A stretch of 64,000 bases of DNA, from positions 448,001 through 512,000 of the forward strand of contig CAWFFN010000009.1 of assembly GCA_963815115.1 (NCBI GenBank), given 5' to 3'. This stretch comes from an uncultured delta proteobacterium. Lineage in GTDB: Bacteria; Desulfobacterota; Binatia; DP-6. The notes under the pieces are model-generated. The model had not been told where the DNA came from and did not search any database. It was given only the letters and a program-made list of their open reading frames with translations. This document shows positions 59,053 to 64,000 of the stretch, piece by piece. The position numbers and the translations under genes are program-made. Position 1 is the stretch's first letter. Every line of letters starts with the position of its first letter.

Positions 59053-60573
59053 CTAGCGCCAGCCGTACAGCGCTCCCATCACGCGCTCCATCATCCGTGC
59101 CCGCCCCGGCGAGTACGGGAACCAGGGTTGCTCCCGCTTCCGCCGCCGCGACTCGACCAGGATCGCCTGCCGGACGCAGAACTGCCGCAGGCCCTCGGCG
59201 CCGCCGTGACGAGTCCCGACGCCGCTCTGCTTGACCCCGCCGAACGGCAGGCCGGGGATCCCGGCGGAGACGAGACACTCGTTGACGCACGCGTTGCCGC
59301 TCTCGATGCGCTGCGCGAGGGCGATGCCGCGCTCGACGTCACGCGTCCACACGCTGGCGTTGAGCCCGTAGCGGCTGTCGTTCGCGAGCCGCAGCGCCTC
59401 GTCGGCGTCGCGCACGGTCATGACCGGGACCACGGGCCCGAAGGTCTCCTCGCGCATGACGAGCATCGAGTGATCGACGCCGCCGAGGACCGTGGGCTCG
59501 TAGAAGTGTCCGGGACCGCTCCCGGTCCGCCGGCCGCCCAGCAGCACCTGTGCCCCCCTCGTCCGCGCATCGTCGACGTGGCGCTCGACGATCTCGATCT
59601 GCCTCGGGCTGGTGAACGCGCCGTAGTCGATGTCGGCGTCCGGACCGTTCGGCCCGACGCGCAGCACCCGCATCTGCTCGACGAGCTTCTCGGTGAAGGA
59701 CCGTGCGACGGGCTCCTCCACGTAGACCCGCTCGACCGACATGCAGACCTGGCCGGCCATCATGCAGCCGCCCCAGGCTGCGGCGCGGGCCGCACGGTCG
59801 AGGTCGGCGTCGCGCAGCACGATCATCGGATCCTTGCCGCCCAGCTCGAGCAGGACCGGGGTGAGGCGGCGGCTGGCTCGCTCCATCACGCGGCGTCCGG
59901 TCTCCGGCGAGCCGGTGACGCAGATCATGTCGACGTGGTCGACCAGCGCCGCCCCGGTGTCGCCGGCGCCGATGACCACCTGCAGGAGATCGGGCGGAAG
60001 GGCGCGCTGCATCGCCTCGACCGCGCGCTGCACGGCGAGTGGTGCCAGCTCCGAAGGCTTGATGACCACCGCGTTGCCCGCGAGCAGGGCCGGCACGGCG
60101 TCACCCAGAGCGAGGTTGAGGGGGGCGTTCCAGGGGCTGATGATGCCGACGACGCCGCGCGGGCGGTAGGCGACGAGCGCGCGTTTGCCGAGGAGCGGCC
60201 GCGAGCTGACGCGCTCGGTCGCCAGCCAGCGTGGCGCGCGCCGAACGAGTCCCCCGAGGTCGAGGCACACGCCCATCAGCTCGCCCACGACGTCGAAGCG
60301 GGCCTTGCCGGTCTCGCGCTCGAGGCGGTCGAAGATCTCGCGGCGCGCCCGCACCAGCTCGCGCCGGGCACGGCGGAGCATCCGGCCGTGTTCGCGGACG
60401 GGCAGCGCGCCCCAGGCGACCTGCGCAGCGCGGGCGCGCTCGACGGCGACTGCGACCGCCTCGGCGTCGTCGATCGCCAGCTCCTGGACGAGGCCCCCGC
60501 GCGCCGGATCGTGCACCCGAAGCGTCGCCGGGTGCAGGGCAGGCTCGCCGCTGACTCCTTGGGCCATGCTCAT
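59053..60573 (-). CDS. Aldehyde dehydrogenase
   Basis: 'ISPWNAP', 'TGS', 'LELGGKDP', 'AGQVCMSVER', 'EETFGP'. Confidence 0.92.
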   Translation of the reverse strand: MSMAQGVSGEPALHPATLRVHDPARGGLVQELAIDDAEAVAVAVERARAAQVAWGALPVREHGRMLRRARRELVRARREIFDRLERETGKARFDVVGELMGVCLDLGGLVRRAPRWLATERVSSRPLLGKRALVAYRPRGVVGIISPWNAPLNLALGDAVPALLAGNAVVIKPSELAPLAVQRAVEAMQRALPPDLLQVVIGAGDTGAALVDHVDMICVTGSPETGRRVMERASRRLTPVLLELGGKDPMIVLRDADLDRAARAAAWGGCMMAGQVCMSVERVYVEEPVARSFTEKLVEQMRVLRVGPNGPDADIDYGAFTSPRQIEIVERHVDDARTRGAQVLLGGRRTGSGPGHFYEPTVLGGVDHSMLVMREETFGPVVPVMTVRDADEALRLANDSRYGLNASVWTRDVERGIALAQRIESGNACVNECLVSAGIPGLPFGGVKQSGVGTRHGGAEGLRQFCVRQAILVESRRRKREQPWFPYSPGRARMMERVMGALYGWR

Positions 60574-60582
60574 CCTCCTCGC

Positions 60583-61008
60583 TCAGAACTGCATGCGGTA
60601 GAGCATGTAGTAGACGATCCAGCCGCTCGCGGCCACGTACAGCCAGATCGGCAGCGTCACGCGGGCCAGGCGGCGGTGCGCGCGGAAGTCGCGCTTCGCG
60701 AGCGCCAGGTAGATCAGCCGGACGGCGAGCGGGCCGACCACGATGGCGAGGATCACGTGCGGGATCAGGTTGGCGAAGTACAGGGTGCGCCACTCGCCGG
60801 TGCCCTCGAAGCGTTTCGTCCCGAAGACGGCCCAGCGCGTCACGTATGCGACCAGGAACAGACCGGCGAGGCTGGTCGCGAGGAGCATCACGTTGCGATG
60901 CCAGGCGACGCGCCGCGGCACGCGGATGAGGAACCATCCCGCGAGGAGGAACACGCCACTTCCCACGATGCATCCGGTGCTGATGAGGGTGAGACGCTCG
61001 AGCGTCAT
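60583..61008 (-). CDS. DUF420 family membrane protein
   Basis: 'H..ML.A...LFL..Y', 'H..LA', 'HRRLAR.T.PIWLYV..SG..VY..L'. Confidence 0.85.
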   Translation of the reverse strand: MTLERLTLISTGCIVGSGVFLLAGWFLIRVPRRVAWHRNVMLLATSLAGLFLVAYVTRWAVFGTKRFEGTGEWRTLYFANLIPHVILAIVVGPLAVRLIYLALAKRDFRAHRRLARVTLPIWLYVAASGWIVYYMLYRMQF

Positions 61009-61037
61009 CGCGTCACGTCATTCCACGGGCAGGGCGC

Positions 61038-61109
61038 AAGAAGAACCCCGACGGCCTTTTGCGGCTCCGAGAGCCGCCCCGCCGGTGATTGCGGGGGCCG
61101 CCGGGGTTC
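61038..61109 (-). terminator. Terminator-like branched stem-loop
   Basis: Minus strand GAACCCCGGCGGCC...GGCCGTCGGGGTTC-TTCTT with an internal GCGGCTC/GAGCCGC hairpin. Confidence 0.5.
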
Positions 61110-61162
61110 GGTGGTGCCTGGGTCCCCTAAGGGTGACCCAGCGACGTTGAAGCGGGTCGACC

Positions 61163-61207
61163 CTAGGAGGCCACCACCTCACAGATCACCGTAGGGGATA
61201 ACGTCAC
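61163..61207 (-). CDS. Candidate sORF MTLSPTVICEVVAS behind an extended Shine-Dalgarno
   Basis: AGAAAGGAGG-TGATCCA-GTG, 7-nt spacing, TAG stop. Confidence 0.45.
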   Translation of the reverse strand: MTLSPTVICEVVAS

Positions 61208-61354
61208 TGGATCACCTCCTTTCTTCCGGCGAGAGCACAGGCGGGCCCAAGCCCCGCCGCCGGAGTACGACCGCCGTTGCCGTCCTCCGACCCCGACCAC
61301 CGGCTTCGCCGGCTCTGAGGCCTGTGTACGCCCCGGTCGGGAACCCATGGCGAT

Positions 61355-61383
61355 AGCGTAGCGCCGAGACGGCTACGTGTAAA
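61355..61383 (-). promoter_or_regulatory. Sigma70-type promoter
   Basis: -35 TTTACA (61383-61378), 17-nt spacer, -10 TACGCT (61360-61355). Confidence 0.55.
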
Positions 61384-61394
61384 TCGCTTCGTGC

Positions 61395-62252
61395 TCACGC
61401 GCGGCCGGTCACCAGCCAGGCCGCGCCTTCCATGCGCACGCCGGCGCTCGTCTGGTACGGCGCGAGCGCCTCGCGCACCGCCGCCGCCACCGCCGCCCGA
61501 GCCGCGGGGTCGGCCTGGCGCATCGCGGCGCTGGTCGGCCCCACGCCGGTCAGCAGGATCTCGGTCACGTCGTCGAGGCCCTTCCCCCCGCCGATGGTGA
61601 GCATCGCGCGATGATCGGCGAACGCCAGGTCGGTGAAGCCGGCGCGCTCCAGGATGCCGCGAACTCGCGCCGCGTCGGCGAACGAGAGCGGCCCCGGCGC
61701 GCCGGGCTCGGGAGGCGGCGGCAGGGTGATGTGGCGCGCGGCGGCGGCGAGCGGAACCCGCATCCACGGATTGTCCGCCAGGGCTTGCCAGCAGACGAAG
61801 CCGAGCCGGCCACCCGGACGCAGCGCCGCGTGCAGGTTGGTGAACGCGGCCGCCGGCTCGACGAAGAACATCACGCCGAAGCGCGAGAAGCACACGTCGA
61901 AGCGCGCCGGCTCGAACCGTGTCGTCTGGGCGTCGGCGGCCTCGAAGGTCACGTTGCGGAGACCCGCGGCGCTGGCGCGCTCGCGCGCGCTGGCGAGCAT
62001 CACGGCGGAGAGGTCGACGCCGGTGACCGCGCCGGTCGGTCCGACGCGGCGGCCGAGCTCGACCGTCGAATCGCCGGTGCCACAGCCGACGTCGAGCACG
62101 CGCTCGCCCGGCGCGATGCCGGTTCGGTCCATCGCCGCCTGTCCGAGCGGTCGGATCTGCTGGTCGAGAACGTCCCTCAGTCCGACCCATTTCGGGCCGG
62201 CGGTCTCGTTCCAGTAGGTGATCTGCTCCGCGTTCGGACCGGTCGCCTGCAT
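61395..62252 (-). CDS. Class I SAM-dependent methyltransferase
   Basis: 'VLDVGCGTG', 'GVDLS..ML', 'FSRFGVMFF', 'LRPGGRL.FVCW'; an alternative start lies at 62291. Confidence 0.88.
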   Translation of the reverse strand: MQATGPNAEQITYWNETAGPKWVGLRDVLDQQIRPLGQAAMDRTGIAPGERVLDVGCGTGDSTVELGRRVGPTGAVTGVDLSAVMLASARERASAAGLRNVTFEAADAQTTRFEPARFDVCFSRFGVMFFVEPAAAFTNLHAALRPGGRLGFVCWQALADNPWMRVPLAAAARHITLPPPPEPGAPGPLSFADAARVRGILERAGFTDLAFADHRAMLTIGGGKGLDDVTEILLTGVGPTSAAMRQADPAARAAVAAAVREALAPYQTSAGVRMEGAAWLVTGRA

Positions 62253-62287
62253 GGGGCCCTCCTCGCCTCCCGCTTCGGGCTCACGAC

Positions 62288-64000
62288 TCATCGTCCGTTC
62301 CTCGCGCGGGCGATGTCGTCGATGCATTGCACCACGAGCGACGTCCATCCGGTCTGGTGGCTCGCGCCGCAGCCGCGACCGGTATCGCCGTGGAAGTACT
62401 CGTAGAGGAGCACCAGCTCGCGAAAGTGCGGATCATCGGCGTAGCGGCGCTCGTCGCCGTGACAGGGCCGCCGTCCCGCGGCGTCGGGGAGGAAGAGACT
62501 CGCCAGGCGGCGCCGGATCTCGCGCGCGGCCTCGAGGAGGGTCACGCGCCGGCCCGACCCCGTCGGCAGCTCCACCAGCAGGTCGTCGCCGTAGAAGTGG
62601 TGATATCGCTCCAGCGCCTCGACGAGGAGGTAGTTGAGCGGGAACCAGACGGGACCCCGCCAGTTCGAGTTCCCTCCGAAGATCCCGATGGTGGACTCTC
62701 CCGGCATGTAGCTCACGCCGAGGTTCTGCTCCTCGAAAACGCACTCGAATGGCTGGCTGGCGTGGATGCGGGAGAGCGAGCGGATCCCCCATGGGGAGAG
62801 GAACTCGTTCTCGTCGAGCAGGTAGCGCAGCAGACGCTCGAGCCGTGCGCGGGCGGGAATGGCGAGGAGGCGGCGGCCGTCGCTCTGCTGCATGCACGCG
62901 ATCTGGTAGGCCAGGTCGCTGCGGTTCTCGAGGAACCATCGCATGCGCTTCGAGAACGCCGGCAGGCGGTCGAGCGTGTCCTGCTCGAGCACCTCGACGG
63001 CAATGAGCGGGATCAACCCCACCAGCGAGCGGATGCGCAGCGGCAGGTTTCGCCCGTCGGCATGGAGCTGGTCGTAGTAGAAGCCGTCCTCGTCGTTCCA
63101 CAGGCCCGTCCCACCGAGCTCGTTCATGGCATCGGCGATGGCGACGAAGTGCTCGAAGAACTTGGACGCCATGTCCTCGCAGGCGGGATACTCGTGCGAC
63201 AGCTCGAGCGCCATCGACAGCAGCGTGCCGCAGTAGAATGCCATCCAGGCGGTGCCGTCGGCTTGCTCGAGATTCGCGCCGTTGCGCAGCGGCCGCGAGC
63301 GGTCGAAGACGCCGATGTTGTCGAGACCGAGGAAGCCGCCGCCGAAGAGGTTGTTGCCCTCGACGTCCTTGCGGTTCACCCACCAGGTGAAGTTGAGGAT
63401 GCACTTCTGGAAGACCCGGGCGAGAAACATGGTGTCACGCTCGCCGCGCGCGGCGGTCATCTTGTAGACGCGCCAGGCCGCCCACGCGTGCACCGGCGGG
63501 TTGACGTCGCCGAACGCGAACTCGTAGGCCGGAAGCTGCCCGTTCGGGTGCATGAACCATTCGCGCAGGAAGAGCACGAGCTGCTCCTTGGCGAAGTGCG
63601 GATCGGCGCGCGCGAAGACGACCGTGTGAAAGGCGAGGTCCCACGCGGCGTACCACGGATACTCCCACGCGTCCGGCACCGAGATGATGTCGCGGTTGTA
63701 GAGGTGCCGCCAGTCGGCGTTGCGTCCGGTCTTGCGCGCGGCCGGCGGCGGTGGCTGTCCCGGATCGCCGTCGAGCCATGCCGCGACCGAGTAGCCATAG
63801 AACTGCTTGGTCCAGAACAGCCCGGCGCTGGCCTGCCGCGCGACCCGCAGCTCGGCATCCGTGGCCCCGGACGCGACGAGCGTGGCGTGGAACGCGTCGG
63901 CCTCGGCCCGCCGCATCGCGAAGGTCTCGGCGAAGTTGCCGTCGAACGGGGTGCGCGGCGCTTCCGCGTCGGCGGAGAGCCGCAGCCGGACGACGGCTTC
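62288..64000 (-). CDS. GH63/MGH1-like glycoside hydrolase, 5' part outside the window
   Basis: 'WEYPWYAAWDLAFH', 'DVNPPVHAWA', 'GGFLGLDNIG', 'FGGNSNWRGPVW', 'GASHQTGWT'. Confidence 0.9.
   Translation of the reverse strand, partial: EAVVRLRLSADAEAPRTPFDGNFAETFAMRRAEADAFHATLVASGATDAELRVARQASAGLFWTKQFYGYSVAAWLDGDPGQPPPPAARKTGRNADWRHLYNRDIISVPDAWEYPWYAAWDLAFHTVVFARADPHFAKEQLVLFLREWFMHPNGQLPAYEFAFGDVNPPVHAWAAWRVYKMTAARGERDTMFLARVFQKCILNFTWWVNRKDVEGNNLFGGGFLGLDNIGVFDRSRPLRNGANLEQADGTAWMAFYCGTLLSMALELSHEYPACEDMASKFFEHFVAIADAMNELGGTGLWNDEDGFYYDQLHADGRNLPLRIRSLVGLIPLIAVEVLEQDTLDRLPAFSKRMRWFLENRSDLAYQIACMQQSDGRRLLAIPARARLERLLRYLLDENEFLSPWGIRSLSRIHASQPFECVFEEQNLGVSYMPGESTIGIFGGNSNWRGPVWFPLNYLLVEALERYHHFYGDDLLVELPTGSGRRVTLLEAAREIRRRLASLFLPDAAGRRPCHGDERRYADDPHFRELVLLYEYFHGDTGRGCGASHQTGWTSLVVQCIDDIARARNGR

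Follow-up and report, generated by a model that had tools for sequence, protein, structure and literature searches.

The stretch of DNA analysed here (64,000 nucleotides [nt]; hereafter the window) belongs to contig CAWFFN010000009.1 of an uncultured delta proteobacterium of the class Binatia. Two of its minus-strand genes, encoding an S-adenosylmethionine (SAM) methyltransferase (61395-62348, upstream) and a DUF420 protein (60583-61008, downstream, followed by an aldehyde dehydrogenase gene), are separated by a spacer of 386 nt that is unusually well conserved. This spacer harbors a predicted small mRNA, also on the minus strand, in which an extended Shine-Dalgarno sequence (SD) complementary to the 3' tail of 16S rRNA leads directly into a small open reading frame (sORF) of 14 codons. 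Very probably it represents a small mRNA that stands by itself and is of the rre type, a class described in alpha-proteobacteria, and a long-form member of a cross-phylum family that shares a sORF with the residues Cys-Glu-Val (C-E-V) and includes the actinobacterial RNA Ms_IGR-5.

The host genome (6.89 Mb in 12 contigs) has a single assembled 16S gene at G000:C7:561108-562668, the 3' end of which reads ...GTAGCCGTAGGGGAACCTGCGGCTGGATCACCTCCTTTCT. The plus strand of the window reads CCGTAGGGGA at 61189-61198, TAACGTCA at 61199-61206, and CTGGATCACCTCCTTTCT at 61207-61224. The first and the last of these, blocks of 10 and 18 nt, are identical to the host's own 16S 3' end and stand at the same 8-nt spacing, so the original prediction of two exact blocks in register, one facing helix 45 and the other the anti-SD tail, was confirmed by alignment with the rRNA of the host itself. 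The spacer matches 16S rRNA at one of its eight positions, and 28 of the 36 positions of 61189-61224 match overall. A search of the 6.89-Mb genome for the 18-mer with up to two mismatches returned two sites, the 16S gene and 61207-61224, and the reversed-pattern control returned none. The match to 16S rRNA is real and not a product of chance. Read from the minus strand, the 18 nt constitute what we call a super-SD; its duplex with the 16S tail has a computed energy of -32.6 kcal/mol, compared with -9.2 kcal/mol for AGGAGG, and the SD core is kept in all homologs.

The sORF that starts on the last base of the super-SD has the codons GTG ACG TTA TCC CCT ACG GTG ATC TGT GAG GTG GTG GCC TCC TAG. 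Its reading frame was retained in all 29 relatives, starting with GTG in 27, ATG in one, and TTG in one. The relatives have 13–15 codons, with a variable N-terminal part in which insertions and deletions come in multiples of three, and an unvarying C-terminal part (T-V-[ITSM]-C-[EK]-V-[VA]-x-x). For a wider survey, one genome per species was scanned with a pattern made of the SD core and, after it, the TGTGAGGTGG motif; the pattern fixed the C-E-V codons and left frame, start, and stop free. The scan yielded at least 120 stretches, with 80 loci among the matches listed. In 77 of the 80 listed loci, a start codon lies 7–13 nt past GGAGG, the frame has 12–15 codons, and the stop falls exactly three codons after C-E-V; the stop codons of these 77 listed loci are TAG (61), TGA (11), and TAA (5). 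With its GTG and TAG in place and its frame kept in relatives and across phyla, the 14-residue sORF of the original prediction stands. A leaderless version of 61 residues had been suggested as well. The in-frame ATG at 61348 is indeed present, but the extension is not conserved: among 29 homologs, in-frame stops interrupt it in eight and an in-frame ATG upstream is missing in 12, and the region is not part of the short forms of the RNA (see below).

Within the window's own family (f1), 23 of 24 genomes gave a strong DNA match (E ≤8e-28) of up to ~330 nt, mostly with ~80% identity over ~310 nt; the 24th (G015) gave only a 26-nt match at chance level. In other families of the class (some of which are referred to below by labels such as f3 or f10), 9 of 16 genomes showed partial matches centred on the 16S-complementary core. 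A phylum-wide search for the exact core pattern covered 401 genomes and found it in five, all of them among the 15 sampled from the window's class; the 386 genomes of other classes and the control gave none. As the exact pattern misses diverged forms, the result for other classes means not found rather than absent. The listed loci of the cross-phylum scan include Actinomycetota (Mycobacterium, Streptomyces, Kitasatospora, Pseudonocardia, Brachybacterium, and others), with peptides like xxxx[WR]TCEVAAR; the other labels listed are Rokuibacteriota/Methylomirabilota, Binatia, Nitrospiria, Terriglobia, Thermodesulfobacteriota, and 'Deltaproteobacteria', with peptides like xxxxTVICEVVAS. Near-identical elements occur at L046 and L109, in records labelled Thermodesulfobacteriota or Deltaproteobacteria. 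The host itself is no actinobacterium, in keeping with the sigma54 activators and DUF748 proteins encoded beside the element in relatives.

The RNA exists in a short and a long form. In the short form, found in family f3 and in Actinomycetota, a promoter of sigma70 consensus directly precedes ACACAGG and the SD; an example of such a promoter is TTGACA-17-TACAAT (L035 and L043 in f3; actinobacterial loci L047-L122). The long form has an additional, covarying 5' domain of ~120 nt and is found in f1, f10, Methylomirabilota, Binatia, and other lineages. The ACACAG at the 5' end of the short forms recurs in the first hairpin loop of the long forms. The short-form peptides of f3 are rich in Cys (MIDKCCDCEVAET, MINDKCTDCEVAGT). 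One mycobacterial-type element (L118, peptide LVDLWTCEVAAS) is in a metagenome-assembled genome labelled Gammaproteobacteria; its neighbours cluster with those of Mycobacterium loci, and the contig may be mis-binned.

At gathering thresholds, Rfam gave no match in the 64-kb window. A permissive search matched 61037-61229 of the minus strand to Ms_IGR-5 (RF02471) with 35.3 bits (E 2e-6) over the full length of the model (1-184), and to CC2171 (RF01867) with 28.2 bits; the consensus sequences of both models open with a GAAAGGAGGUGAUCC block. Ms_IGR-5 matched the same element in 43 of 101 genomes of the class, five of them above its cut-off (46.7–49.1 bits), and CC2171 reached its cut-off in none of the 101. 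Weak CC2171 matches at L034 and L037 were considered as second rre genes and rejected, both being gene 3' ends with ordinary terminators. The original prediction had placed the RNA in no known family, a view that the full-length, sub-threshold match to Ms_IGR-5 and the fit to the published rre class do not sustain. It had also not recognised the RNA as transfer-messenger RNA (tmRNA); neither ARAGORN nor Rfam found a tmRNA in the window, and the tmRNA of the genome is located elsewhere (C5:1363908-1364260, 185.6 bits).

The transcript is predicted to start near 61349-61347, downstream of two promoter-like boxes (Table 1). Its body opens at ..CATGGGTTCCCGA (~61349) and ends in a long GC-rich stem with a T run (~61038), and relatives likewise have clean T runs at the terminator. 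The RNA of the window folds with -179.3 kcal/mol (z = -4.87), and none of 100 shuffled sequences folded as well. RNAalifold analysis of 28 sequences gave 80 pairs, 28 of which have double-sided compensatory changes; terminator pairs 303/371 and 304/370 showed 9 and 11 double-sided changes, respectively. A contig-end fragment (L028) was excluded from all counts, and a near-duplicate of L009 (L010) was excluded from the close alignment A1. In the 5' domain, the loop of hairpin P1 carries the conserved ..ACACAG.. (61327-61322). Conserved promoter boxes, covarying helices, a terminator, and the fold score together support a stand-alone structured unit on the minus strand, as had been proposed. The loop of an inner terminator hairpin, ..UCACCG.. 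(61087-61082), is conserved across phyla and represents another anti-SD-like element. Upstream of the unit, the reading frame of the methyltransferase shares 61 nt (62288-62348) with that of a GH63-like hydrolase (62288-63916), which runs in the same direction; one of these two genes probably starts further downstream.

Table 1. Features of the predicted small mRNA and its promoter region, in positions of the window.
Feature	Position	Strand	Description and basis
Whole small mRNA (predicted)	61038..61349	-	~310 nt; homology, RNAalifold, fold z-score, RNA contigs
-35-like box TTTACA	61378..61383	-	Counterpart in 23 family homologs is a conserved TGGACA/TTTACA box
-10-like box TACGCT	61355..61360	-	17 nt past the -35 box; conserved TAnnnT in relatives
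5' domain of the long form	61232..61349	-	P1 61334-61317, P2 61291-61259, P3 61258-61240; each with double-sided pair changes
Super-SD	61207..61224	-	18-nt perfect complement to the host 16S tail, AGAAAGGAGGTGATCCAG; last base is the G of GTG
sORF	61163..61207	-	14 codons + TAG, MTLSPTVICEVVAS; frame conservation in relatives and across phyla
Helix-45-complementary block	61189..61198	-	TCCCCTACGG; codons Ser-Pro-Thr (4-6) and the G of Val; exact in this genome
GGUGGUG in the sORF	61172..61178	-	Codons E-V-V; 5' strand of the long-range helix with 61110-61116
Internal mimic of the 16S tail	61132..61147	-	ACGUCGCUGGGUCACC; predicted pairing partner 61216-61202 (3' half of the SD, start codon GUG, codon 2)
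Alternative hairpin	61118..61141	-	CUGGGUC-ACCC..GGGG-GACCCAG; 96.4% paired; 2/10 pairs with double-sided changes
CACCACC, anti-SD-like	61110..61116	-	3' strand of the long-range helix, immediately before the terminator stem
Terminator module	61038..61109	-	13-bp outer stem 61109-61097/61055-61043, two inner hairpins, U-rich run 61045-61038

The long-range helix that joins the sORF to the anti-SD-like segment is supported by covariation. A partner for GGUGG:CCACC was found in 48 of 49 non-actinobacterial sequences, with at least six of seven positions paired in all 48 (L014 is the one sequence missed by the CCACC pattern), and compensatory changes occur in L030, L082, and L026. The equivalent 9-bp helix of the actinobacterial RNAs is 98.1% paired over 57 sequences and has double-sided changes in four of nine pairs. 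The actinobacterial structure that was tested contained 39 double-change cells, compared with 8.3 ± 3.0 in shuffles, none of 500 of which was as high, and slid controls were 31–58% paired. Also in Actinomycetota, the 3' flank of the SD, (G/A)UCC, pairs with the GGA(C/U) of the codons preceding C-E-V (94–100% paired), so that the 'conserved' [W/R]-T residues of these peptides are explained as RNA pairing.

A second helix is predicted to close the start site. The internal mimic of the 16S tail can pair with GGUGAUCCAGUGACG in a helix of 15 bp and -27.7 kcal/mol, given by both RNAalifold and the single-sequence minimum free energy (MFE) structure, which would leave the 5' AGAA(AGG) of the super-SD unpaired. 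This putative SD-sequestering helix, found only in f1, f10, and partly L029, has conservation and energy in its favour but no covariation. The alternative hairpin at 61118-61141 overlaps the mimic and is mutually exclusive with the sequestering helix. Lineages that have no mimic (L030, L032, L058, L087, L123, L125, and others) carry a hairpin CCUGGG-AGGA-CCCAGG downstream of the sORF stop, which displays an SD-like GGGAGGA in its loop and stem. In the close alignment A1, the core helices barely vary (94.6% paired vs 94.0% in shuffles). All-against-all covariation in a cross-phylum MAFFT alignment, from which L082, L104, L109, and L120 were dropped as poorly aligned or truncated, was noisy and returned the terminator and local hairpins together with spurious long-range stacks. 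A pairing of CGGUGAU in the sORF with an AUCACCG loop appeared compensatory in L009-L011 and was discarded, as its last pair is unpaired in 13 of 28 sequences.

The features of this RNA were compared with those of known systems; statements on published work are drawn from the accessible portions of the papers cited. The rreB RNA of Bradyrhizobium is a 165-nt free-standing mRNA with a sORF of 14 residues (Hahn et al., RNA Biol 2016; PMC5711450). Its SD is perfectly complementary to the 16S 3' end over 17 nt, the G of GTG among them, and lies mostly in a hairpin, with five 5' bases free. The rreB RNA co-sediments with the 30S subunit, which requires the 5' extension of the SD, and is weakly translated, and mutation of the start codon to a stop codon prolonged its half-life from 10 to 37 min (PMC5711450). 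Analogues (rreR and others) are reported there in alpha-proteobacteria only, the accessible text mentions no Rfam families or other phyla, and RreB and RreR are described as dissimilar to each other (PMC5711450).

The window RNA resembles the rre genes (rreB of Bradyrhizobiaceae, rreR of Rhodobacterales) in being a small free-standing unit with an RpoD-like promoter and a terminator, in a 16S complement that ends on the G of a GTG start (16-17 nt in rre, 18 nt here), and in a clade-conserved sORF (14–18 codons in the rre class, 14 here, with GTG in most relatives). It also shares an SD lying mostly in a hairpin (predicted here) with few free 5' bases, and a genomic context that varies outside close relatives. 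It shows all those hallmarks of the rre class that can be read from sequence. It differs in its length of ~310 nt with a conserved 5' domain, compared with ~165 nt, and in belonging to a phylum other than the alpha-proteobacteria; its sORF is part of the multi-phylum C-E-V family, the comparison with rreB and rreR being by description and not by sequence. The data on 30S binding, weak translation, and start-codon-dependent turnover are those of rreB, and their counterpart for the window RNA is the computed duplex energies.

Ms_IGR-5 (RF02471; M. smegmatis IGR-5, ncMSMEG15794c) has the same ACACAGG..SD, the same C-E-V-x-x-x-stop sORF, the same GGUGG:..CACC helix, and a terminator. Its actinobacterial members are of the short form (~180 nt), use mostly TTG or ATG as start codon, and lack the helix-45 block, whereas the window RNA is of the long form and starts with GTG. 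Homologs are expressed in Streptomyces, as validated by RNA-seq in S. lividans (PMC8079986, PMC8780764), and were mapped as a separate small RNA (sRNA) transcription unit in S. avermitilis (PMC8780764). Ribosome-protected reads are reported in M. abscessus and M. smegmatis (PMC4974804), and in M. smegmatis the RNA carries a nicotinamide adenine dinucleotide (NAD) cap and is called 'yet uncharacterized' (PMC10454040, bioRxiv 10.1101/2021.12.14.472595). The consensus of CC2171, a Caulobacter sRNA, opens with GAAAGGAGGUGAUCCAGUG, the same super-SD running into GUG, and its sORF differs from that of the window; CC2171 is expressed according to Northern blots and is given no known function in the accessible text (bioRxiv 10.1101/2022.01.24.477521). 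A search of the open literature, outside which subscription journals and supplements lie, found no functional study of the peptides, Ms_IGR-5/RF02471, the M. smegmatis locus, extended-SD small RNAs, or rreB/rreR beyond PMC5711450.

Parts of the element were detected in 23 RNA runs from soil and sediment metatranscriptomes, each of a different study. Contigs of four RNA libraries lie on 61082-61322; one contig of 168 nt is identical to the window (61118-61285), and two others, 247 and 255 nt long, derive from relatives and extend into sequence resembling the 5' hairpin. Over 60800-61600, these four libraries left 60800-61069 uncovered and 61340-61600 nearly so. These gaps in the flanks are no evidence of transcript ends, because the runs were found via the element and most contigs come from relatives with other flanks. 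The run shares (0.16–0.41) are uninformative on habitat. The family core was assembled in metatranscriptomes of more than 20 studies, with word depths of several hundred in some (X2, X4). There are hints that these RNAs are abundant in environmental communities.

Several points weigh against an rre-type mRNA of the C-E-V family. The Rfam scores are under the cut-offs of 45 bits for Ms_IGR-5 and 75 bits for CC2171, and the resemblance to rre may be convergent. Over-expression of rreB had no effect on growth, and the accessible text calls its function 'elusive' (PMC5711450). A generic promoter and terminator scan of 60500-62000 found no promoter and did not call the terminator of the element either, its only call being an unrelated terminator-like site at 61886-61871; our promoter and terminator calls therefore rest on conservation. 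Metatranscriptome contigs cannot establish strand, ends, or even transcription. Single-sequence MFE prediction does not give the covariation-supported GGUGG:CCACC helix, and the mimic helix, which is restricted to certain lineages, shows one-sided (G-U) changes only and no double-sided covariation. Synonymous sites hardly vary in the 3' half of the sORF (TGT, GAG, and ACG, for example, never change), so that selection for the peptide itself is not proven. RNA pairing can explain much of the apparent 'amino-acid' conservation of the sORF, and synonymous sites that hardly vary would be expected under a joint constraint on the RNA and the reading frame.

Different explanations have to be weighed for the 16S complement itself. 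The original prediction took the RNA to sequester 30S subunits, as in hibernation, or to act in 16S maturation, by pairing not only with the anti-SD tail but also with the 5' strand of helix 45 and its GGAA loop, which is methylated by KsgA. In this genome the two blocks match 16S rRNA exactly and keep its register, rreB is a precedent for such RNAs sitting on 30S (PMC5711450), and the helix-45 block persists in many relatives: it is exact in 15 of 23 family homologs, the other changes are mostly C-to-U, and all 23 keep at least eight pairs counting G-U. On the same count, f10 has 9–10 pairs, and the core C(C/U)CUACGG recurs there and in Methylomirabilota homologs. In the sister families f3, f4, f7, and f8, however, only 1–6 Watson-Crick pairs of 10 are left (L029, L030, L031, L032, L033, L035, L043), while the 16S 3' region is identical in 17 of 18 relatives with assembled ends, including hosts of diverged blocks (G006, G010, G012, G027, G030, G031, G039). 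The block is missing from the actinobacterial and f3 forms, and 6 of 10 Methylomirabilota homologs have a spacer of 9 nt, not 8. Block and target are also uncoupled in G007, whose helix 45 bears a compensatory double change (CCGTACGGGAACGTGCGG vs CCGTAGGGGAACCTGCGG in the 17 others): its element, L017, retains the unchanged block and would face the altered helix with a central C-C mismatch. The block coincides with codons of the conserved sORF, and its computed duplex with helix 45 (-19.0 kcal/mol, against -18.3 kcal/mol for melting the helix-45 hairpin) would merely offset that melting. In the mature 30S subunit, moreover, helix 45 is folded and packed. The family as a whole keeps the SD core and loses the helix-45 block, an outcome that the original prediction had named as a refutation, and a role through helix 45 seems very improbable to us, with nothing in favour of one limited to this lineage either; the complement looks like an incidental by-product of the Ser-Pro-Thr-Val codons in this lineage and not like a working part. 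The 28 of 36 identical positions would also fit a plus-strand 16S fragment, left over from an rRNA operon or created by misassembly, but this reading is refuted for practical purposes. The similarity breaks off on both sides and within the spacer, the element occupies equivalent and different chromosomal sites in dozens of genomes, its promoter, sORF, and terminator are all read from the opposite strand, and Rfam found no rRNA there.

The position of the unit, on the same strand as the DUF420 and aldehyde dehydrogenase genes and directly upstream of them, had suggested a cis-acting leader, a ribosome-dependent attenuator that controls these genes. The order methyltransferase-element-DUF420-aldehyde dehydrogenase is kept in the three closest genera and partly at L027, and the layout is formally that of trpL/ilv-type attenuators, with a short translated ORF (putative in the window), mutually exclusive helices, and an intrinsic terminator. 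Yet 19 of 29 loci have none of the DUF420, aldehyde dehydrogenase, and methyltransferase genes as neighbours, the flanking genes of these 19 being diverse and on either strand (AMP-binding enzymes, sigma54 activators, TetR, HAD, DUF748, TPR, and alcohol dehydrogenase), and clustering revealed no neighbour family common across lineages among the 77 cross-phylum loci from the matches listed. Streptomyces homologs are separate transcription units (PMC8780764). Unlike trpL/ilv leaders, the RNA has neither a conserved downstream operon nor a codon run for one regulatory amino acid, and its extreme SD is foreign to attenuators. Control of the downstream genes is thus not upheld, and we judge it highly unlikely. 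The RNA could instead be a purely non-coding, trans-acting sRNA with a sORF that is an accident of RNA motifs and an SD-like stretch that is structural or binds targets. CCUCC and CCACC motifs are typical of SD-binding sRNAs. The near-invariant synonymous positions of the sORF 3' half, which is one strand of a covarying helix, would fit such a role, as would the actinobacterial [W/R]-T codons (xGG ACx), which coincide with the GGAC that pairs with the SD flank GUCC. What speaks for a translated frame is that an in-frame start at SD-compatible spacing is present in all 29 relatives and in 77 of the 80 listed loci even as its position and type vary, that length changes in threes, and that the stop is fixed in position and variable in codon; in addition, homologs have ribosome footprints (PMC4974804) and rreB is translated (PMC5711450). 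We regard a non-coding sRNA as unlikely.

The RNA is genuine and conserved, and it is probably abundant. As an rre-type small mRNA, it would have a sigma70-like promoter of its own on the minus strand, from which transcription would run from ~61349 to ~61038 and end at its own terminator. The single-stranded 5' bases of the super-SD would seed pairing with the free 16S 3' tail of a 30S subunit, a step suggested by the sequence; the steps that follow are more conjectural. Full pairing (-32.6 kcal/mol) would displace the mimic helix that covers the 3' half of the SD and the GUG start. The ribosome would then translate the 14-codon sORF with its fixed format. Given the GUG start and the great strength of the SD duplex, translation would probably be inefficient, and it would melt the GGUGG:CCACC helix beside the terminator. 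Docking and translation would in this way reshape the RNA and probably determine how long it lasts, as is the case for rreB (PMC5711450). Strong docking on the 30S subunit, as claimed in the original prediction, is plausible by analogy because the rreB RNA co-sediments with 30S (PMC5711450). The output may be the 14-residue peptide, the freed anti-SD-like RNA segment, or the engagement of the ribosome itself.

A broader idea, which we put forward tentatively and consider doubtful, is that the C-E-V rre/Ms_IGR-5 RNAs are one ancient riboregulator conserved across phyla. It would combine a maximal SD, an anti-SD-like CCACC, and an anti-anti-SD (GAGGUGG) within a sORF of fixed length whose stop is always three codons after C-E-V. 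Docking of a free 30S subunit and one round of translation would toggle the helices, and the RNA might serve as a gauge or test template of free or competent 30S subunits, its state or decay reporting translational capacity. In the window's family and in Methylomirabilota, the additional complement to helix 45 might bias such an RNA toward 30S particles in which helix 45 has yet to fold.

Small mRNAs with an SD of 16-18 nt have been described once before, in alpha-proteobacteria, and the same design is found here in a distant lineage. The RNA of the window is linked to Ms_IGR-5 of Mycobacterium and Streptomyces and to homologs in Methylomirabilota, Nitrospiria, Binatia, and genomes labelled Acidobacteria, very probably as members of a single family, in which the format of the micro-ORF is invariant and translation has to melt a covarying helix. 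Such loci are currently unannotated or labelled non-coding. The family illustrates how genes of 12–15 codons can be conserved across phyla, with part of the 'protein' conservation being RNA structure. This opens the role of rre RNAs to experiment in genetically tractable bacteria, among them M. smegmatis and Streptomyces.

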